Source: Planctomycetota bacterium
GTDB taxonomy: Bacteria; Planctomycetota; PUPC01
Direction of reading: 5' to 3'
DNA: 50,515 bases
NCBI GenBank assembly: GCA_043819695.1
Contig: JBDREM010000360.1
Span: 1-50,515 of the forward strand
Of the stretch, positions 38,462-47,424 are shown piece after piece. The position numbers and the translations under genes are program-made. Position 1 is the stretch's first letter, and every line of letters starts with the position of its first letter. The notes beneath the pieces are model-generated. The model was not told the origin of the DNA. It made no database searches and worked only from the letters and a program-made list of their open reading frames with translations.

Positions 38462-39727
38462 TCAATCTCCCGGCGGCTGTTGGCCGACCACGCAGACGGC
38501 GCCGCACGCCGGGCACTTGGCGCATTTACCCGCATGGGCGGCGGCGGCGCGGAGCTTGGTCCCGCAGGAGGGGCACTCGACGAGGAGCCACTGAGCGGAG
38601 TCCGGCGGCCGGCCCGGCCCGGCGCATTTGGTGCACCGTTCGGTGGCGTCATCGAAGTGATCGGCGCAGAAGGCCTTCCCGCACTGCGGGCAAAGCCGGG
38701 CGTGCGCTGTGCACAGGACCTGCTTGCACGCCGCGCACTGCGAGACGTGGTTGACGCAGACGCGGGCGCCGCACTGGGAGCACTCGAAAGCGCAGTCGGC
38801 ACAGGCGGCGGAGCCGCAGATCGAGCACCGCTGCACGTGCTCTTCGCACAGGGCCTTGTTGCAGCTTGCGCACGTGGCGGCGTGTTCGACGCAGACCGCC
38901 TGGCGGCAGACGGCGCACTGCCGGACGTGGTCGAGGCACACCTGCCGGCCGCACTTCGAGCATTTGATGATGCAGTCGGGACAGCCGGAGTTGTCACAGA
39001 GCGAACAGGTTCCGATGTGGGTCTTGCAGGTAACCTGAGCGCACTGGGGGCACGTGCCGCTGCACGCCTTGCACACGACATGTTCGCACACGGGGCACGT
39101 CCGGGGCTTGCAGAGCAGGCACAGGGATCGCTGGCAGCTTTCGCAGACCACGACGCAGTCGGCGCAGACGGAGTGGCCGTTGACGCAGCGCGTGATGGTT
39201 CCCCTGCGGCCGCGGCAGTTCTGGCACTCTCCCTCTTTCGCGGCGCTCCGTTGGATGTCCGACCAGGCGGAGGGCGAGAAGTCCCTCGGGTCGGTCGGCA
39301 CGAGGCCGGTGTTCTCGTCGACCCATCGCGCGGCCGCGCCGTTCAACGGGCTCTTTGTGTTGTAGCTCTGATAAGCCAGCATCTCGCCGATGCGGATGAT
39401 GAGGTTGAGGAGGGATTCGCCGGCGGCCCAGTGGTCGCCGATGCAGATGGCATGCGGCGCGATGTTCGGATGGAAGACGGGGGTGAGCATTCGGCACTGT
39501 GGCGCCTGGCGGGGGTAACCGAGTGTAAGGTAAATCTCGGCCAGGTGCTCGAGCCGTTCGGTGACGTCGCCTTCGGCGGTCTCGTGGAGGCTTCGGACCT
39601 TGAACTCGATCTGGTACCGGTCGGGCGGGCTGCCGGAGACCCCTCGGACGCGGAAGGCCGGGTGGTCCCGGAGCCCCTCCTTGATCTCTTCGTAGTCGGC
39701 TTGTATCCGTCGGAGTCGAACGCTCAC
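38462..39727 (-). CDS. Ubiquitin-conjugating enzyme (E2/UBC-fold)-like protein fused to a ~245-aa Cys-rich zinc-binding tandem array
   Basis: Residues 1-135 read RLRRIQADYEEI...YQIEF...YPRQAPQCRMLTPVFHPNIAPHAICIGDHW...LLNLIIRIGEML, giving the HPN motif plus a candidate catalytic Cys94. Residues 168-413 hold about 11 tandem 15-aa modules C-x2-C-x4-C-x2-[HC]-x3, followed by a terminal zinc ribbon. The GTG start forms a GTGA overlap with the upstream gene. Confidence 0.8.
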   Translation of the reverse strand: MSVRLRRIQADYEEIKEGLRDHPAFRVRGVSGSPPDRYQIEFKVRSLHETAEGDVTERLEHLAEIYLTLGYPRQAPQCRMLTPVFHPNIAPHAICIGDHWAAGESLLNLIIRIGEMLAYQSYNTKSPLNGAAARWVDENTGLVPTDPRDFSPSAWSDIQRSAAKEGECQNCRGRRGTITRCVNGHSVCADCVVVCESCQRSLCLLCKPRTCPVCEHVVCKACSGTCPQCAQVTCKTHIGTCSLCDNSGCPDCIIKCSKCGRQVCLDHVRQCAVCRQAVCVEHAATCASCNKALCEEHVQRCSICGSAACADCAFECSQCGARVCVNHVSQCAACKQVLCTAHARLCPQCGKAFCADHFDDATERCTKCAGPGRPPDSAQWLLVECPSCGTKLRAAAAHAGKCAKCPACGAVCVVGQQPPGD

Positions 39728-41001
39728 TGCTGCTCGTCCCGGGTTTCTTCCTTCGGCGTCGAAGGGGTCATCTGGAGCTTCAGCGCTCCGTGTTCTTCAA
39801 TGAGCGGGATGAGGTCGGAGACCACGATCGAGAAGCTTATGCCGGCGGCGGTGCCGCGGCCTGCCGTGAAGGTGTTGATCCCGATCAGGCCGCCGTCCTG
39901 CCTGTACAGCCCGCCCCCGCTGTTCCCGGGATTGAGCGGCAGCTGCATCTGGATGATCCGCAGTATCTTCTCGCCCAGGTCGTTGCGCCGTATCGCCGAG
40001 ATGACTCCCTTGCCGTACGACCAGCCCAGGCCGAGCGGATTGCCGACGGCGAAGACGGATTCGCCGATGTTGAGCGTCGGGCTCGAGGCGACTTGGGCGG
40101 TGTCGAACGAGCTCTTGCCCGCCGGGCACGTGAGCAACGCGATGTCGATGCCGGTGGGCGCCCGCCACTCCACCTTCGCCTCCTTCTGCGTGCCGTCCGC
40201 GAAGGTGACCGTTATCGCCGGCGGCCCGCCGGAGAACAGCCCATCGGCCCCGTTGATGACGTGGCGATTGGTGATGATGACCACACGGCCCTGCTGGTTC
40301 GCGAGGATTACGCCGGACCCCGCGGACATCGAGCCGCGCCCGCCGGCAACAATCATCACGTTCGCCCGGATCGCCTTCCGGATAGACTCCGGGATGGTGG
40401 AGGCGTCGTCTATGCCGTAGACCTGGTCGGGCCGGATGAGGCCGGGCGGCTCGAGCGGCATGGTCGTGTCGCGCTGGCTCAGGTAAAAGAGACAGAAGCC
40501 CGCGGCCCATGCCACGATCTCGACCACGCCCACGATGACCGCGGCCGCCGCGAACCCCATCCCCTTCAGGTCGCGGCGCGAGTTGATGAAGCCGACCGCA
40601 ATGGACCCGAGCACGATCGCCAGAAAGCCCGGCACACCGAACGCGAACAGGCCGACGATTGCGCACACGAACGCCACCACCGCCAGAACGCTCAGGCGCC
40701 TCCGGCCCGGCGAGACGACCGGCGACCAGCCGGGCGGCACGACCCGCGGCGGCTGCGGCGGAGCCGGCGTCCGGGCAACGTCCTCCGCAGTGACGACGAG
40801 GTCCGGCTGGGCCCGTCCGGCGGGCGACGCACATTCGTATGCGTGGCAGCGGCCGCTCTCGATCCAGCAATGCTCGTGCTGGATGTGGCCGCAGATCGGG
40901 CAGGACCCAACCGTCTGCCCGGACCGGATGGCCTGCTGGCAGCAAGGACACAACTGGCCCTGCTGCAATTTGCCGGCGACGAACATCTCAGGATTCGACA
41001 T
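39724..41001 (-). CDS. C4HC3 RING/PHD-like finger - TM segments - trypsin-like (S1/HtrA-like) serine protease fusion
   Basis: The N-terminal finger is CPCC-x12-CPIC-x4-H-x2-CW-x5-C-x4-C. Hydrophobic segments follow (LSVLAVVAFVCAIVGLFAFGVPGFLAIVLGSIAV, AAAAVIVGVVEIVAWAAGFCLF). The protease triad context is TNRHV / DIALL / GNSGGG. Confidence 0.8.
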   Translation of the reverse strand: MSNPEMFVAGKLQQGQLCPCCQQAIRSGQTVGSCPICGHIQHEHCWIESGRCHAYECASPAGRAQPDLVVTAEDVARTPAPPQPPRVVPPGWSPVVSPGRRRLSVLAVVAFVCAIVGLFAFGVPGFLAIVLGSIAVGFINSRRDLKGMGFAAAAVIVGVVEIVAWAAGFCLFYLSQRDTTMPLEPPGLIRPDQVYGIDDASTIPESIRKAIRANVMIVAGGRGSMSAGSGVILANQQGRVVIITNRHVINGADGLFSGGPPAITVTFADGTQKEAKVEWRAPTGIDIALLTCPAGKSSFDTAQVASSPTLNIGESVFAVGNPLGLGWSYGKGVISAIRRNDLGEKILRIIQMQLPLNPGNSGGGLYRQDGGLIGINTFTAGRGTAAGISFSIVVSDLIPLIEEHGALKLQMTPSTPKEETRDEQQ

Positions 41002-41046
41002 GTCTGCCCCGATCGGCTGTCCCTGTGAAAAACGTGCCCCCTGCTG

Positions 41047-41775
41047 CTACATGACCACTGTAAACAGGATTATACTGTAAAACAAGCTCAATATCACCGA
41101 GCCATACGCAAGAACTTCGTGCGGCCCCCCGGCCCTCCGCAGCGCCTTGCGGGATCGCCAGAGCCAGATCGGGGCGACGAACACAAGGATGGGGGCCGGG
41201 ACCCCGAGGACGCTGAGCGCGAACAGAACGATTGCCTGGGTGCGGACCCGGCCGAGTTGCGACTCCGACGTGCCCCACGCGCGGTACTCGGCGCTCGTCA
41301 TCGGAACGGGCGACGGGAACCGGGCCTTGCAGAAGCGGCACTTGACGGCCACCGAACGAATGGGTTTCCCGCATCGCGGGCAGGCTTTCTCGTCGCCCCA
41401 TCCGCCCTGCCCGTCGGCCGCCTCGTCCTCCGGCTTCGGCGCCTTGGGCATGAGCTCGCAGCCGTAGGTCGCGCAGCCGCCGATCTCGTCCCAGCACTCA
41501 CGATGATAAGCAGCGCGGCACTCGGAGCAGGAGCAGGCCGTGTCGCCGTGCGCGATTGGCGTGCGGCACACCACGCAGACCTGTCCGGCCAGTTCGCCGG
41601 ACCCGGCCGAGAGCGGCCCCCTTGCCGCCGCGGGCGCTGCATCGGCTGCGGCGCCGTCGGCCGCGGGGACCGTCGCGACCCGGCCGCACTTGGGACATTT
41701 CGCGCGCTTCCCCGCGGCCGACGCCGGCGCCGAAATCCGCTGCCCGCATTTGCAGTTGTAGATGATCTGCATCAC
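41047..41775 (-). CDS. Zinc ribbon - C4HC3 RING/PHD-like finger - zinc ribbon - TM protein (E3-like paralog 1)
   Basis: The finger is CVVC-x12-CSEC-x4-H-x2-CW-x5-C-x4-C. The flanking ribbons are CKCG...CPKCG and CPRCG...CRFC. The C-terminus has hydrophobic helices. The start is GTG at 41775 or ATG at 41772. Confidence 0.75.
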   Translation of the reverse strand: MMQIIYNCKCGQRISAPASAAGKRAKCPKCGRVATVPAADGAAADAAPAAARGPLSAGSGELAGQVCVVCRTPIAHGDTACSCSECRAAYHRECWDEIGGCATYGCELMPKAPKPEDEAADGQGGWGDEKACPRCGKPIRSVAVKCRFCKARFPSPVPMTSAEYRAWGTSESQLGRVRTQAIVLFALSVLGVPAPILVFVAPIWLWRSRKALRRAGGPHEVLAYGSVILSLFYSIILFTVVM

Positions 41776-41799
41776 ACATGTCCCGCGCGCCGCGGCCCG

Positions 41800-42594
41800 C
41801 TACATCGAGCTCGCCGCGATCAGGTTAATAATGATGTACAGAAGGCACACGACAAAGCCAATGATGCCTAGGATTATCCCGGCCGTCGCCATCCCTTTGC
41901 CGGCTATCCTGCCGCGGCTCGCCCTGATCTCCGTTTGCGCGCTCAGGCCCAAGCCGATAGCAATGATGCCGGTGATGACGCCGCAACAGATGAAGGAGGC
42001 GATGCCGAGAATGAGCGAGGCGATCGCCTTGCCGCTCGTGCTCGCCGGCGCCGCACGGGCGCGTCCCGGGCCGGCGGCGAGGAACTCGCCGCAGTGGCGG
42101 CACTTGACGGCGGAGGCGGCGATCTGCTCGCCGCAGAACGGGCAGGGCTTCGTGCCCGCGCCCGCGGCGACGGGCGCCGGCGCCTGAGCAGCGGCCGGCT
42201 TCGGCGCAATCTTCGGCAGCGGCGCGTTCGCGCACGAGGCCGTGCCGCAGCCGCCGTTCGACTGCCAGCACGAATCGTGGAAAGACCGGCCGCACTGTTG
42301 GCAGTTCCGCACCGCCTCGCCGAGACTGATGGCGTTGCCGCATATCGTGCACGTCCTGCCGGCGACCGCGCGGTTGGCCGCCATCTGCTCCGGCAGCCCG
42401 TCGGCGCCCGGCCCGGCGGACAGCGGCTCGGCGGCGGCCGGCTGATGCTCGGGCTCCGGCGAGACGGGCGCGGCGGCCGCATCCGGCACGCGGATCGTGG
42501 CCCCGCAGTCCCGACACTTGCCCGACCGGCCGGCTGCGTCTTCCGGAACGGTGTATTGCTTGCCGCACTTGGGACACTCGACGATGATGCTCAT
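41800..42594 (-). CDS. Zinc ribbon - C4HC3 RING/PHD-like finger - zinc ribbon - TM (DUF4190-like) protein (E3-like paralog 2)
   Basis: The finger is CTIC-x12-CQQC-x4-H-x2-CW-x5-C-x4-C. The flanking ribbons are CPKCG...CRDCG and CPFCG...CRHCG. The C-terminus has two Gly/Ile-rich TM helices. Confidence 0.75.
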   Translation of the reverse strand: MSIIVECPKCGKQYTVPEDAAGRSGKCRDCGATIRVPDAAAAPVSPEPEHQPAAAEPLSAGPGADGLPEQMAANRAVAGRTCTICGNAISLGEAVRNCQQCGRSFHDSCWQSNGGCGTASCANAPLPKIAPKPAAAQAPAPVAAGAGTKPCPFCGEQIAASAVKCRHCGEFLAAGPGRARAAPASTSGKAIASLILGIASFICCGVITGIIAIGLGLSAQTEIRASRGRIAGKGMATAGIILGIIGFVVCLLYIIINLIAASSM

Positions 42595-42733: not shown

Positions 42734-44110
42734 CTACGACGCGCCGCGCGAACGCTCCGCATACTCGAGGACCGTCTGCCCGAGCACGATCTGATCGCCG
42801 TCCTTCAGCGGCTGGCGCCGCGCTTTCTTGCCGTTGACGATCGTGCCCGCGGGCGTGCTGAGGTCCTCGATCTCATGCCGGTTGCCCACCTTGCGGATCA
42901 GCGCGTGGCGCGGCTCGACGGCGGGGTCCTTGAACAGATAGACCTCGCACTTGGGCGAGCTGCCGAGCGCCGTCGGGCTCTTGTAGATCACGAACTGCTT
43001 GCCGGCGAGCGGGCCGGCCCGCATGAGCAGCCAGGCGTCCTTCGACAAGTGCTCGACGAGGCCGATCATGAAGCCGGCGGCCACGCCGATGATGCCGAAG
43101 CCGAACGCGCGGCTCATCAGGGCCTGCCCGCCGAGGTCGGTATTGGCGAACAGCTTGATGATCGGCTCGAAGCACATGCCGCCGAGCAGCGCGCCGAGCA
43201 GCCCGCCGAGCAGCCCGTTGATCACGAGCTTCTTGCTGCGGAGTGCGACGCCGTGGCCGAGGCCGACCGAGAGGCCGAACACGCCCCACGCCAGCGAACG
43301 GCCTATGACGAGCGCCATAAACGGCCAGCCGGTCAGCGTCGCGCTGGTCCACATGCCGTCGCCGGCCAACCCCTGCACGATCACCTGGGCGAGGCCGAAG
43401 ACCAGGCCGGCCGGGATGAGCCCGACGAGCCCGCCGGCCGCGGCGATCCCGATGCCCGTGATGCAGCACAGGAAGCCGCGGCGCAGGTTGCGCGACATGA
43501 CGCCGTCGGCCGCGGCGACGCAGCCCGCGATACACGCGCCCACGATGGCGAACGCGAGCAGCCGGGACACTAGCTGCAACGCCGAGGCATCGTCCAAATT
43601 CGGCAACGGTTCCTGGTCGCGGCCCGGCGGAATAGCCCGGACCGACACGCGTTCTGCGAAGAGAATGCGGTTGTCCGCATCCGCCACAAACGCCTGCACC
43701 CGGACAGGCTGGCCGGTCTTCAGCTTCCCGACGCCGTTGACCTCGGCGTACTCGCCGCGGCCTTCGATACGGGTGGCTTGGCTGTCGAGATGAAGCTGAA
43801 CGCCGCGGACGGCGATCACGGTCTGTGCAGTCGGCCGCAGCCCCGGCCACTCGGCTTCCTTGACATACTCGATCTTGCCCCAGACGACGATCGACTCGTT
43901 GAAGAGCGGCTCGAGTACGGCCCACCCGGCGATCCCGCCGATGAGGCCGGCGACGGACAGGAAGAACAAGCTGTTGAAGACGATTCGCCGCCAGAGGCTC
44001 GTCGGCCCGAATTCGCCCATCGGGCGCAGCAGGGCTTGCTGCTCGGCGACAATGTCGTCGATCCTCGGCGAGAACAGCTCGTCGCGGGTGATCCGGATCT
44101 TGTCAGGCAT
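42734..44110 (-). CDS. Polytopic membrane protein with C-terminal FHA (phosphopeptide-binding) domain
   Basis: Several Gly-zipper-like TM helices are present. The C-terminal ~95 aa read ...GSSPKCEVYLFKDPAVEPRHALIRKVGNRHEIEDLSTPAGTIVNGKKA...LKDGDQIVLGQTVLEY, the FHA pattern (G-R/S...S-x-x-H...N-G). Confidence 0.8.
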   Translation of the reverse strand: MPDKIRITRDELFSPRIDDIVAEQQALLRPMGEFGPTSLWRRIVFNSLFFLSVAGLIGGIAGWAVLEPLFNESIVVWGKIEYVKEAEWPGLRPTAQTVIAVRGVQLHLDSQATRIEGRGEYAEVNGVGKLKTGQPVRVQAFVADADNRILFAERVSVRAIPPGRDQEPLPNLDDASALQLVSRLLAFAIVGACIAGCVAAADGVMSRNLRRGFLCCITGIGIAAAGGLVGLIPAGLVFGLAQVIVQGLAGDGMWTSATLTGWPFMALVIGRSLAWGVFGLSVGLGHGVALRSKKLVINGLLGGLLGALLGGMCFEPIIKLFANTDLGGQALMSRAFGFGIIGVAAGFMIGLVEHLSKDAWLLMRAGPLAGKQFVIYKSPTALGSSPKCEVYLFKDPAVEPRHALIRKVGNRHEIEDLSTPAGTIVNGKKARRQPLKDGDQIVLGQTVLEYAERSRGAS

Positions 44111-44212: not shown

Positions 44213-45517
44213 TCAGGGCTCGAGGCGTGGAGCGAACTCGACGGCCATGTCCCGGAGGCGCCTGGCCAGTTCGAAGCGCGCCGCGGCCCCGTCATCCTTC
44301 GGCTGCGAGAGCAGGTACTGGGCCTCGTTCACGCACACTTGGGCCAGCCGCGTCTTCAGCAGGTCCAGCTCCTCCGGTAACGTAGCGACGAGGTCCATCT
44401 GCCTGGCGATACGCTCGGCGGACAGGTACCGCTCGGCCATCTTGCCCACGTGGCCCTCCGCCTGTCGGAGCGTCAAGGCGGCGCTGTCCAGCCGCTGCAG
44501 CGCCTCGGCCTTGAACCCTGCGGCCGCTTCGCCCTGATCGCCGGAGAATTCTTGCTGCGAGAGGTCCGTCCGCACGAGCTCGATCCGCTGGGAAGCGCGG
44601 TTCAGCGCGAGCAGCACGGTCGCCAGCTCGCGGTCCAGCCCGTCGCGGAACAGCCCGGCCCGGATGAGGTCCTCGACCTGCTTGCGCTGATCGTTGAGCG
44701 ACCGCCGGAACACGCTGCCGGGCACGAACCCGCCCAGCCAGAACACGACCAAGACGGCGATGGCCCCGAAGATCGCCCACATGGCCAGAGACTTCGCGTC
44801 GGCTCTCGATTCGTCGGGCTCGACCCGCGCCGGCGAGTACAGACGTTCGCGTTCCGGCTCTTCGCGCTCGTCTTCGGCCGCCGCGGCGGCGTCCTGTCCG
44901 CCGGGCGCGGCAGTCTCGAGGTCGTAGCAGAGCTCGCCGCCGATCCAGTAGCGCCGCAGCCGTTCGGAGCGGCCCTCGCGCCAGTAAAAAATCCCCTTCG
45001 CCTCGGAACAGGGGTCGTACACGAGCGCGACGCTGTGCGGGGCGTTGAAGAAGTTGTCCTGTATGAACTGGTCCATGTCGGAGAGGAACACGCCCAGCCC
45101 GGGGTGCGAGTGATACCAGCCGACAATGCGGAGCTCGGGGAAGCGGTCTTCCATCACCTGATGCACGTGCTGCCAGGTCTCGTGGGTGAAGGTGACCTGC
45201 GAGCCGCTGCGGCGTGTCGCCGCGCCCTCGATGACCTCTTCGACCAGCAAGTATGGGCCGCCGGAATCGGTCAGGATTCGCCCGGCCAGCACGCCGCACT
45301 GCTCGACCGACGTGTCGCTGTCCGCGTGGTCCTTGACGGCCTCGAAAGCCTTCTCGGCAACGGCGACGCGATAATCGGCCGGCAGCGAAGGGAAGTCGCG
45401 CGATTCCAGCTCGGCCGCGTCGATCTGGCTCACGTCCGTCTCTGGGGCGTCGGGGGCGTCGTCCGTCTCCGGCGCTTGCTCGTCGCGAGCTTCCTTCTTT
45501 CTCTTCTTCCTTGTCAT
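44213..45517 (-). CDS. JAB/MPN+ (JAMM) metalloprotease with TM helix and long C-terminal coiled coil
   Basis: The JAMM motif is intact: E72 (VEQCGVLAG) ... GWYH136SH138PGLGVFLS146DMD149. A TM helix LAMWAIFGAIAVLVVFWLGGFV follows, and then a helical region of about 170 aa. Confidence 0.85.
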   Translation of the reverse strand: MTRKKRKKEARDEQAPETDDAPDAPETDVSQIDAAELESRDFPSLPADYRVAVAEKAFEAVKDHADSDTSVEQCGVLAGRILTDSGGPYLLVEEVIEGAATRRSGSQVTFTHETWQHVHQVMEDRFPELRIVGWYHSHPGLGVFLSDMDQFIQDNFFNAPHSVALVYDPCSEAKGIFYWREGRSERLRRYWIGGELCYDLETAAPGGQDAAAAAEDEREEPERERLYSPARVEPDESRADAKSLAMWAIFGAIAVLVVFWLGGFVPGSVFRRSLNDQRKQVEDLIRAGLFRDGLDRELATVLLALNRASQRIELVRTDLSQQEFSGDQGEAAAGFKAEALQRLDSAALTLRQAEGHVGKMAERYLSAERIARQMDLVATLPEELDLLKTRLAQVCVNEAQYLLSQPKDDGAAARFELARRLRDMAVEFAPRLEP

Positions 45518-45526
45518 GGGACCTCC

Positions 45527-46741
45527 TCACTCCTCGCCCGTCTCGCCGGCGAGTTCGCCGAGCGCGGCTCGCTCGTCGCCGGCCATAAGGTACCCCACGG
45601 CGCGCAGGCCGCTTCGGCCGACGAGGATGTCGAACGGCGGCAGGCCGATCTCAGCGGGCGTAAGGTCCAGGAAATCGTCCTGGCCGCCGACACTATGGAG
45701 CAGTTGGGGAAAGCGCATCTCGCCGCACGCGGGGCACCGCCCCTGCTCTTCGCTCACCTTCCCCAGCGAAACGAAAACGGTCTCGGCCTCGCCGCACTTC
45801 GGGCATTCGAGTTGGCGGATCACCTCGCGGCTCAGCTCGATGACCGCGTCGGGGCCGAGGTCCGCGCGGGCGCGCGCCAGGAGGCCGCCGAGCGTGATGT
45901 CGCTCGACCGGTCGGGCAGTTCGATCATCTCTCCGAGCGTCTCGTGCGCGAGGCAGTCCTCCTTGCGGGGGTACGACACGCCGTAGACCTCGCCGCTCTG
46001 CCCGTTGATGGTGAGCCCCGCGCCGCCGCGGACCTCGAGGCGGTGCAGGTACTTGAGCATCTCCTGGCACTGGAACCCGGCGACGATGGACGAGATTGTC
46101 GCGGTCGTCGGCGTGTGGCCCTCGAGCATCTCCTCGCGGCTCAACAGGGCGCACGAGCGCCGGGCGTCGAGCATCTGCCAGTCGATCTCGTTCATTGTGC
46201 ACTCGTAGCACGCGCCCAGGCCCGGCCGGAACATCCGCACGACGCCGTCGAGGCGCTCGATGGCGCCGTCGATCCAGGCGCGGCCGACCTTCAGGCAGGC
46301 CCGGTTCACCGCGACGCGCGCCTCGCGGTTGTCCAGGCCGCAGATGACCACGTCGGCCCAGCGAAAGACACCGAGGCCGAGGTCGTGGACCACGTTGCCG
46401 TCGAATGCCCGCGCCCGGGTGCCGGGGTGCATCGCTCTCACCCGCGCCGCGGCGACCTCGGCCTTGGGCTTGCCGATGTCGTCCTCGCGGAACAGCACGC
46501 TGCGCGCCAGGTTCGAGTTCTCGATGCGGTCGAAGTCGGCAATGAACACAGAGCCGATTCCGACGAGCGCGAGGTTCTTGAGGATCTCGTTCCCGAGCGC
46601 TCCGGCGCCGATGACGAGCGCCCTCGAGCGTTCGAGCCGGGCCTGGTCCCACCATTCGATGAGCTCCTGGCGGCTGAAGCGCCCCTCCCCGCAGGCCGCC
46701 TTTCCGAGCTTTATGACGTCGTTCATGCGCCTCCCCGTCAA
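45527..46741 (-). CDS. ThiF/MoeB/E1-like ubiquitin-like-protein activating enzyme
   Basis: ALVIGAGALGNEILKNLALVGIGSVFIADFDRIENSNLARSVLF (nucleotide-binding and Arg-finger-type blocks), then CGLDNREAR and GACYEC. The C-terminus carries a ribbon CPKCG...CPACG. Confidence 0.88.
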   Translation of the reverse strand: MTGRRMNDVIKLGKAACGEGRFSRQELIEWWDQARLERSRALVIGAGALGNEILKNLALVGIGSVFIADFDRIENSNLARSVLFREDDIGKPKAEVAAARVRAMHPGTRARAFDGNVVHDLGLGVFRWADVVICGLDNREARVAVNRACLKVGRAWIDGAIERLDGVVRMFRPGLGACYECTMNEIDWQMLDARRSCALLSREEMLEGHTPTTATISSIVAGFQCQEMLKYLHRLEVRGGAGLTINGQSGEVYGVSYPRKEDCLAHETLGEMIELPDRSSDITLGGLLARARADLGPDAVIELSREVIRQLECPKCGEAETVFVSLGKVSEEQGRCPACGEMRFPQLLHSVGGQDDFLDLTPAEIGLPPFDILVGRSGLRAVGYLMAGDERAALGELAGETGEE

Positions 46742-46765: not shown

Positions 46766-47044
46766 CTAGCAACGCTGGCCCGCTGTGATTTCGGCCTGCA
46801 ACCGCACGACGTCCATGTCCTTGACGCCAGCCTGGGCCAGCGTCTGATCGTCGAGCAGTTGGCGGCCCGTCGACTTGTGATGGAACTTGTAGCTCATCAA
46901 CTGTCCGTCGGGGCTGTTTCGCGGCAAGTTCATGCGGTTGACCAGCACGGCGATTATGCGGTTGACCGGAGCGTCGTCCGGCACCTCCGCCGTCTGGCGC
47001 TTGTTACCCGTAGCGTCCCATACCTCGAGCGTTATCATACCCAT
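46766..47044 (-). CDS. Small ubiquitin-like (beta-grasp-sized) protein ending ...EITAG-QRC
   Basis: 92 aa with a GGGAGGAG RBS. It is the first gene of the E1/JAB/E2 operon. Gly89 is followed by a 3-residue tail. The fold itself is inferred from size, pattern and context only. Confidence 0.7.
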   Translation of the reverse strand: MGMITLEVWDATGNKRQTAEVPDDAPVNRIIAVLVNRMNLPRNSPDGQLMSYKFHHKSTGRQLLDDQTLAQAGVKDMDVVRLQAEITAGQRC

Positions 47045-47114: not shown

Positions 47115-47142
47115 ATTCTAGTTGACCCGTATCTTGTGTCAA
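47115..47142 (-). promoter_or_regulatory. Sigma-70-type promoter candidate for the Ubl-E1-JAB...E2 operon
   Basis: The minus strand reads TTGACA (47142-47137), a 16-nt spacer, then TAGAAT (47120-47115). It lies about 70 nt upstream of the Ubl ATG. Confidence 0.45.
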
Positions 47143-47424
47143 CAGCAAAATGCCGGTCTGTGTAACGGCCGGTTACAGGGGGTCTCGACGACGCGGGCCA
47201 TGGCCCGCCCCGCGAGCGGAGGCCCGTTCCCGCCGATCACGTCGATGCCGTCGGTCTCGACGGAGCGCGCGACGTTGAACGTGAGGGCGATATTGTTACG
47301 CATCCAGAACTTGAGGGGGCTCAGGGTGTCGCAGGCAGGCCGAAAAGGATCGCGGCTAACGACGAGCTAACCGCTTGGCAAAGGCGCGCACCGCGCGGAT
47401 TCGACAATACGGTCGAGCTCGATG

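Follow-up and report, generated by a model that had tools for sequence, protein, structure and literature searches.

Eukaryotic ubiquitin and ubiquitin-like (Ubl) precursors, such as the ubiquitin-ribosomal protein fusions, carry a tail or a partner protein that is cut off after the reactive glycine. A Gly-Gly end is typical of ubiquitin, SUMO, and NEDD8 but is not universal among Ubls; UFM1 has a single glycine, its sequence ending in Val-Gly followed by a short Ser-Cys tail. In bacteria, JAMM enzymes trim the tails of sulfur carriers, as in the QbsE/QbsD and CysO/Mec+ pairs. Operons that combine Prok-RING_1 fingers with an E1, an E2, a JAB protein, and a YukD-like Ubl were reportedly predicted by comparative genomics by Burroughs, Iyer, and Aravind (Mol Biosyst 2011), in a study that is said to be the source of Prok-RING_1 and whose abstract reportedly holds that YukD-like Ubls might be conjugated. 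A passage of a 2014 review cites Burroughs et al. 2011 for uncharacterized "related operons" in Planctomycetes (PMC4197634).

Among the systems studied experimentally, the nearest to the present one is that of Candidatus Caldiarchaeum subterraneum, in which the CsUb precursor (87 aa) loses the nine residues that follow its Gly-Gly through the Rpn11-type JAMM protein of its operon (PMC6043591; PMC5654768). The P1' rules of this enzyme, CsRpn11, have been measured: a C79G substrate was cut faster and a C79E substrate was blocked, and alanine at the penultimate position of the Ubl slowed cleavage (PMC6043591). BilC pre-processes BilA (PMC10557695), and BubCD cuts the BubAB fusion after a single conserved glycine (PMC11601596), such that in both Bil and type I Bub the JAB/JAMM protein of the operon exposes the C-terminal glycine of the Ubl, as we propose here.

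The present analysis concerns a 50,515-nucleotide stretch of Planctomycetota DNA (the window, by which we mean the whole stretch), which carries an operon on its minus strand with the same parts as the class predicted in 2011, that is, Prok-RING_1 fingers with an E1, an E2, a JAB protein, and a YukD-like Ubl. Its features, in the direction of transcription, are as follows.

47115..47142, minus strand: near-consensus sigma-70-type promoter (TTGACA, 16 nt, TAGAAT; 11 of 12 matches) upstream of the Ubl gene
46766..47044, minus strand: pre-Ubl ORF, 92 aa plus TAG stop; YukD-family protein with a predicted ubiquitin-like beta-grasp fold
46778..47044, minus strand: predicted mature Ubl, residues 1 to 89, ending E85-I-T-A-G89 (motif conserved in homologs)
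46769..46777, minus strand: pro-peptide tail Gln90-Arg91-Cys92, removal predicted (pLDDT < 50; not conserved in homologs)
45527..46726, minus strand: E1, ThiF-fold adenylating enzyme, 399 aa (PF00899, 1e-51)
44213..45517, minus strand: membrane-anchored JAMM/MPN+ peptidase (JAB), predicted maturase and deconjugase (PF01398 and PF14464, both above cut-off)
42734..44110, minus strand: multispanning membrane protein, FHA domain at its C terminus (PF00498, 5.6e-12)
39724..42594, minus strand: three Prok-RING_1 membrane proteins, candidate E3s (42594-41800, 41775-41047, and 41001-39724; PF14446 above cut-off in each)
38462..39727, minus strand: E2, UQ_con core with H86-P-N and Cys95 and a long Cys-rich tail (PF00179, 31.9 bits versus a cut-off of 27)

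The Caldiarchaeum operon likewise comprises a Ubl, an E1, an E2, a RING protein, and a JAMM enzyme. Its Ubl has a tail of nine residues and that of the window a tail of three, but both tails are short, are not conserved, and follow the reactive glycine; CsUb ends in Gly-Gly, whereas the Ubl of the window ends in Ala-Gly and falls in Pfam YukD, not ubiquitin. The operon of the window also differs in the membrane anchoring of its JAB, RING, and FHA proteins, in having three RING proteins, in the Cys-rich tail of its E2, and in its bacterial host. Bil lacks an E3, and Bub has Cys-less E1 and E2 enzymes and a DUF6527 protease, in contrast to the single-domain UBA-like E1 and candidate RING E3s found here. 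Eukaryotes mostly use cysteine-protease DUBs or UfSPs, whereas the enzyme here is likely to be a JAMM metalloprotease, and the cysteine of the tail is not conserved. The operon class was already predicted in 2011 and, since CsUb, BilA, and BubA have each been proven to undergo pre-processing by a JAMM enzyme, the same step here would involve no new principle. What the analysis adds is modest, namely, labile tails, fusion precursors, a bias at P1', and the finding that the "EsaB/YukD" annotation of the Ubl is misleading. A search of the literature found no experimental paper on this Ubl family.

The pre-Ubl ORF starts at ATG 47044, which is preceded by a GGAGGAG-type Shine-Dalgarno sequence, and stops at TAG 46768-46766; the product ends ...RLQAEITAG-QRC, with the Gly89 codon at 46780-46778 (minus strand). 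The initial annotation had given this same C-terminus, and the coordinates and translation agree with it exactly. A promoter site of the quality listed above is expected 0.1 times in shuffled sequence, and its presence, together with a terminator-like hairpin (47374..47352) that closes off the gene lying upstream, indicates that the Ubl gene is the first of the operon. It is single copy in the source genome. No terminator-like site was found between the Ubl and E1 genes, and the RNA at the Ubl-E1 junction folds no better than shuffled sequences (z = 0.49), giving no sign of structure or an attenuator there. There is no need to invoke readthrough or recoding of the TAG stop, since the tails of relatives end at ordinary stops in many different positions.

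The Ubl matches Pfam YukD (PF08817) over residues 12 to 78 with 35.7 bits against a cut-off of 27 and gives weaker matches to Rad60-SLD and ubiquitin. The PF08817 annotation is common to all 120 close homologs, and NCBI names the relatives "EsaB/YukD family protein." A direct sequence search of the PDB with the Ubl gave no match even at an E value of 10, which made a comparison of folds necessary. An AlphaFold2 model built on 36 sequences (mean pLDDT, 90.8; pTM, 0.78) has the order beta-beta-alpha-beta-beta, with its last strand at residues 79 to 86 and with the tail residues 90 to 92 disordered (pLDDT < 50). With this model, Foldseek found 475 matches in the PDB at an E value of ≤0.001, headed by ubiquitin variants, CsUb (6fno; alone and bound to the Rpn11 homolog), SUMO, NEDD8, and BilA (8tyx), with TM scores of about 0.7 to 0.8. 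The Ubl is thus, by its predicted structure, a ubiquitin-type beta-grasp protein, which bears out the fold that had been assumed when the ORF was called a Ubl precursor. Canonical YukD/EsaB (PF08817; PDB 2BPS) shares both the Pfam family and the beta-grasp fold with it; however, canonical YukD sits in ESX/T7SS clusters, whereas this Ubl sits with an E1, an E2, RING proteins, and a JAB protein and has an invariant Ala-Gly end. None of the PADLOC models for Bil, Bub/6E, or type II CBASS matched the Ubl; the E1 of the window matched the E1-E2 (Cap2) and BilD models only partially, through the adenylation domain, and the PADLOC matches of its JAB protein were weak (1e-4).

The C terminus was then compared in more than 200 homologs. 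A word-indexed search returned 1,885 relatives of the Ubl, the best 120 of which are 72 to 90% identical to it, and an exhaustive search of representatives at 50% identity returned 694 matches, of which 150 were examined for the motif. E-I-T-A-G is present in all 120 of the closest homologs and is missing from very few of the 150 representatives, almost every full-length member having it; nearly all homologs carry [AP]EITAG. In an alignment of 36 sequences from many genera, no variation is seen at E85, T87, A88, or G89 or at W9, D10, T12-G13-N14-K15, S44-P-D-G-Q48, Y52, K53, H55, or H56, and the conserved region stops exactly at Gly89. A distant subfamily (32 to 45% identity; loci L024 to L030) has PEIVAG at the same place, so that both subfamilies end in Ala-Gly and not in Gly-Gly. 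Because the motif is near universal in close and distant homologs alike, the Ala-Gly end can be regarded as a hallmark of the whole family, and by its conservation the single glycine preceded by alanine is a real feature, far beyond what chance would give. The conservation of the body of the protein is itself reminiscent of ubiquitin and, judged by the alignment, is seldom so high in small proteins of bacteria. Two of the invariant lysines, K15 and K53, are candidates for chain formation.

What follows the glycine is a different matter. Past Gly89 the homologs share neither sequence nor length, their tails ranging from 0 to 64 aa or being replaced by a whole fused protein. In the 120 close homologs, the median tail is 4 aa (absent in 9, 3 aa in 33), and the tails are rich in R, G, A, S, and P, like GC-rich noncoding sequence. 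We also compiled 94 nonredundant genome loci, with one genome per species, and found the tail to be absent in 14 (15%) and to have at most 5 aa in 47, with a median of 5.5. In the two alternative frames at this position, a median of 24 codons precedes the first stop (Mann-Whitney P = 8e-12, a value that is only indicative, since the 94 loci are kin and such statistics overstate their independence). The tails thus appear to be kept short, not kept the same. The nearest relative, a sister species of the same genus whose Ubl is 94% identical, illustrates how such tails can arise: the last 14 codons of the two Ubls differ by four synonymous changes, and directly past the glycine codon the sequences diverge, with indels and loss of the stop, so that the tail of the sister species is 28 aa long and extends through the intergenic spacer into the beginning of E1. 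A tail of this kind is what a drifting stop codon would give.

The residue directly after the glycine (+1) is an exception to this freedom. We counted it in the 80 tail-bearing genome loci and in the 111 tails from close metagenome homologs. Sixty-seven of the 80 loci have A (21), G (19), R (10), S (9), or V (8) at +1, and none has Pro, Asp, Glu, or an aromatic residue there, even though 7% of all residues in the tails are Pro, which occurs at +2 to +5; the 111 metagenome tails have no Pro and one Asp at +1. Small or basic residues without Pro or Glu fit the P1' rules measured for CsRpn11, and the pattern is the one that a JAMM cleavage site would be expected to impose. Taken together, the short tails, the tail-less species, and the +1 bias point to cleavage after Gly89. 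Cysteine, by comparison, is terminal in 4 of the 111 metagenome tails and present anywhere in 18, which rules out a meaningful terminal cysteine of the UFM1 or lipidation-signal type. Both the Ala-Gly end and the final cysteine had been flagged as unusual in the initial annotation; the former proves to be a genuine hallmark of the family and the latter a product of chance. The glycine is kept and the tail is variable in the homologs, as that annotation had anticipated, and a single C-terminal glycine with a clipped tail is not unprecedented, since BubA and BilA (and UFM1) provide examples.

In several lineages the Ubl is fused directly after the glycine to another protein. A 511-aa ORF (locus L081, 3001-4536, plus strand) consists of the Ubl, a 34-aa linker, and an E1 (Pfam YukD plus ThiF), a fusion seen in one long-read Planctomycetota metagenome-assembled genome (MAG) only, such that an indel error may account for it. 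Fusions of the Ubl to a Zn-ribbon/DUF4190 membrane protein, 233 to 237 aa long in total, are found at L058 (2989-3702, plus strand), at L060 (3001-3702, plus strand), and in protein P0129, which is encoded on three independent contigs (L033 to L035) and has the same junction sequence as P0133; this type of fusion thus recurs in several independent assemblies. A low-GC lineage contributes three more (P0202, P0214, and P0224), with Zn-ribbon, TM/TPR, or lipoprotein-like partners of 112 to 318 aa (286 to 318 aa for the TM/TPR or lipoprotein-like ones). The contigs that encode P0214 carry a Prok-RING_1 protein, the Ubl fusion, a ThiF protein, a UQ_con-plus-FHA protein, a trypsin-like protein, a JAB protein, and a second Prok-RING_1 protein, which is the parts list of the operon of the window, and the operon around P0224 is similar. 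Such fusions make sense only if they are cut after the glycine, since a glycine carboxylate held in a peptide bond cannot be adenylated.

Several observations can be set beside these fusions. The DUF4190 partner resembles the C-terminal half of the 264-aa RING protein of the window (41800-42594). P0202 and P0214 have identical Ubl parts and different partners. Loci L031, L032, L037, and L038 of the low-GC lineage share one parts list, LysM included; a phage-type integrase adjoins the operon in L032, and a Peptidase_M78 (ImmA-like) gene adjoins it in L031 and L032, paired with an HTH gene in L032. YukD-like domains also occur inside two larger proteins (P0266/P0246), one of which (1,052 aa) combines two YukD-like domains with CHAT protease and HINT domains, while the other (480 aa) has a ubiquitin-like domain at both ends.

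The enzymes encoded next to the Ubl have intact motifs. The E1 has the nucleotide-binding glycines (G40xGxxG), CxxC at 173, 308, and 331, and a candidate catalytic Cys192. It most likely starts at ATG 46726 and not at the TTG 46741 of the ORF list, as GGGGAGG lies five bases upstream of that ATG and its relatives align from residue 6 on. Its best PDB matches are UBA1, UBA7, NAE, and SAE2 (1e-29 to 1e-22), ahead of ThiF and MoeB; ThiF and MoeB are its best NCBIfam models, with all scores far below the cut-offs. The active site of the JAB protein is intact (E72, H136xH138, S146, and D149) and is followed by a transmembrane helix at about residues 244 to 262 and then by a long C-terminal helical/coiled-coil region. 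In the PDB it is matched best by the Rpn11-like protein of Caldiarchaeum (6fjv/6fno; 4.6e-9), so that CsRpn11 is its closest solved relative, just as CsUb is among the best fold matches of the Ubl, and the P1' preferences agree. It is also the only JAB-family match found in the source genome, which is 88% complete. The RING protein at 41001-39724 has in addition a trypsin-like domain (PF13365, Trypsin_2), and there is a DUF4190 match (PF13828) among the three Prok-RING_1 proteins.

The linkage of these genes extends well beyond the window, the Ubl gene being accompanied in every case by genes for a UBA1-like E1, which adjoins it, and a JAMM protease. The order Ubl-E1-JAB is found in at least 66 of 80 related loci, the remainder being mostly cut by contig ends, and the FHA membrane protein follows the JAB protein in 39 of the 80. 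The distant subfamily (L024 to L030) has its genes arranged as E1-Ubl-E2-JAB, and the E2 and JAB genes there are short, with products that look soluble. JAB is retained also in genomes in which the Ubl has no tail, implying that it must have a further role, presumably deconjugation. No T7SS/ESX component (EssC/EccC ATPase or WXG100 protein) was found among the operon products scanned or nearby, and no rhodanese, cysteine desulfurase, or cofactor biosynthesis gene was found among the operon products scanned.

The reading that we favor, with a probability of about 0.75, is that the pre-Ubl is matured by the JAB protein at Gly89-Gln90, activated by the E1, conjugated through the E2 and the RING proteins, and deconjugated by the JAB protein. 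We infer each chemical step of this scheme from the ORF, the fold prediction, the conservation of the Ala-Gly end, the lability of the tail, the fusions, the gene linkage, and the intact motifs. In the folded 92-aa pre-Ubl, a beta-grasp, the final strand would stop at I86, and T87-A88-G89 would stay free together with the tail. The membrane-anchored JAB protein, through its cytoplasmic JAMM domain, would then hydrolyze the Gly89-Gln90 bond and release Gln-Arg-Cys. The adjacent UBA1-like E1 would adenylate the carboxylate of Gly89 and load a cysteine, probably Cys192, from which the Ubl would pass to Cys95 of the HPN-type E2 and on to lysines of target proteins, aided by the membrane-anchored RING proteins; the same JAB protein may reverse the conjugation. 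The tail itself would be functionless, a piece of intergenic sequence that happens to be translated and can be tolerated, as the maturase takes off anything past the glycine, even a whole fused protein. As penultimate alanine slowed CsRpn11, the JAB protein here must have adapted to Ala88. The earlier suggestion that a co-encoded JAMM protease acts as the maturase is supported by its intact site, by its being the only JAB protein of the genome, and by CsRpn11 as its nearest solved relative, with cleavage itself inferred.

It is unlikely, in our view, that the tail is instead trimmed by some other enzyme, be it a general carboxypeptidase or a protease such as the trypsin-like domain of the operon, with the JAB protein acting in deconjugation only. 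Such a domain is indeed present in the operon here and in its low-GC relatives, and the retention of JAB beside tail-less Ubls means that maturation is not its sole role. However, the trypsin-like domain follows three TM segments after the cytoplasmic RING and so probably lies on the opposite side of the membrane, and an exact stop at Gly89, together with the removal of fused proteins, calls for an endopeptidase that recognizes the Ubl, as the JAMM enzymes do in CsUb, Bil, and Bub; the pattern at P1' also agrees with the JAMM rules. We consider it quite improbable that the Ubl is never cleaved or conjugated and serves as a noncovalent, YukD/EsaB-like adaptor of the membrane proteins of the operon, with the tail being an irrelevant disordered end. 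That idea draws on the Pfam YukD placement and the NCBI names, on the many operon partners that are membrane proteins, and on canonical YukD/EsaB, which has been reported not to be conjugated in the case of B. subtilis YukD (PMC1779556). Yet it would not account for the invariant T-A-G end, for the forms that lack a tail, for selection toward short tails, for the bias against Pro and acidic residues at P1', or for the strict linkage to E1, E2, and JAB, and there are no T7SS genes nearby.

A sulfur carrier of the ThiS/MoaD/CysO/QbsE type, on which the E1 would make a thiocarboxylate and from which the JAB protein would remove the tail or a cysteine adduct in the manner of QbsD and Mec+, appears to us highly improbable. 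The precedents for tail trimming by such JAMM enzymes, and the ThiF and MoeB models that lead the NCBIfam matches of the E1, albeit far below threshold, are what can be said for it. Against this, the operon has an HPN-Cys E2 and three RING proteins and, among the products scanned, lacks the rhodanese, cysteine desulfurase, and cofactor biosynthesis genes; furthermore, in the PDB its E1 is matched more closely by UBA1, NAE, and SAE than by ThiF or MoeB, and the Ubl has no ThiS/MoaD Pfam match and ends in AG, not GG. The labile tails, the fusion precursors, and the P1' bias provide sequence-level support for JAMM maturation in this Ubl family.

On this reading, the operon would be a complete, compact, eukaryote-like Ubl/E1/E2/RING/JAMM system in bacteria, and the label "EsaB/YukD family protein," with its suggestion of type VII secretion, hides the most likely identity of the protein as a modifier. 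Gly89 as the mature end defines the construct to be made (residues 1 to 89), the JAB substrate, and the lysine remnant to be sought. More tentatively, and with doubts that outweigh our confidence, the tail and the fusions could be a bacterial counterpart of the eukaryotic ubiquitin fusion genes, in which an inactive modifier is switched on at the membrane by a single tethered JAMM enzyme and, in some lineages, is made 1:1 with an E1, with a Zn-ribbon/DUF4190 membrane protein, or with a lipoprotein-like partner that has its signal peptide masked until the Ubl is cut off. If that were true, maturation would be a localized, regulated activation step of a membrane-bound ubiquitination system.

The distribution of the Ubl gene is patchy. 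Of 401 genomes sampled across the phylum, 46 were found to have it, as was 1 of the 9 relatives sampled in the window's own family, which rules out a phylum-wide housekeeping gene. A pattern scan of species genomes found at least 541 carriers, nearly all of them Planctomycetota; cultured carriers include Lacipirellula limnantheis I41 and Aeoliella straminimaris. The combination of a patchy spread with very high conservation suggests an accessory, horizontally moving module. A phage origin of the Ubl is unsupported, as the viral contigs of IMG/VR yielded no relative. Two copies that are 70 to 72% identical to the Ubl of the window, in an Anaeromyxobacter MAG and a Candidatus Riflebacteria MAG (L080 and L114), suggest horizontal transfer out of Planctomycetota or misbinning. 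In one Planctomycetota family (f24), 10 of the 11 genomes sampled carry members of another distant set (32 to 35% identity).
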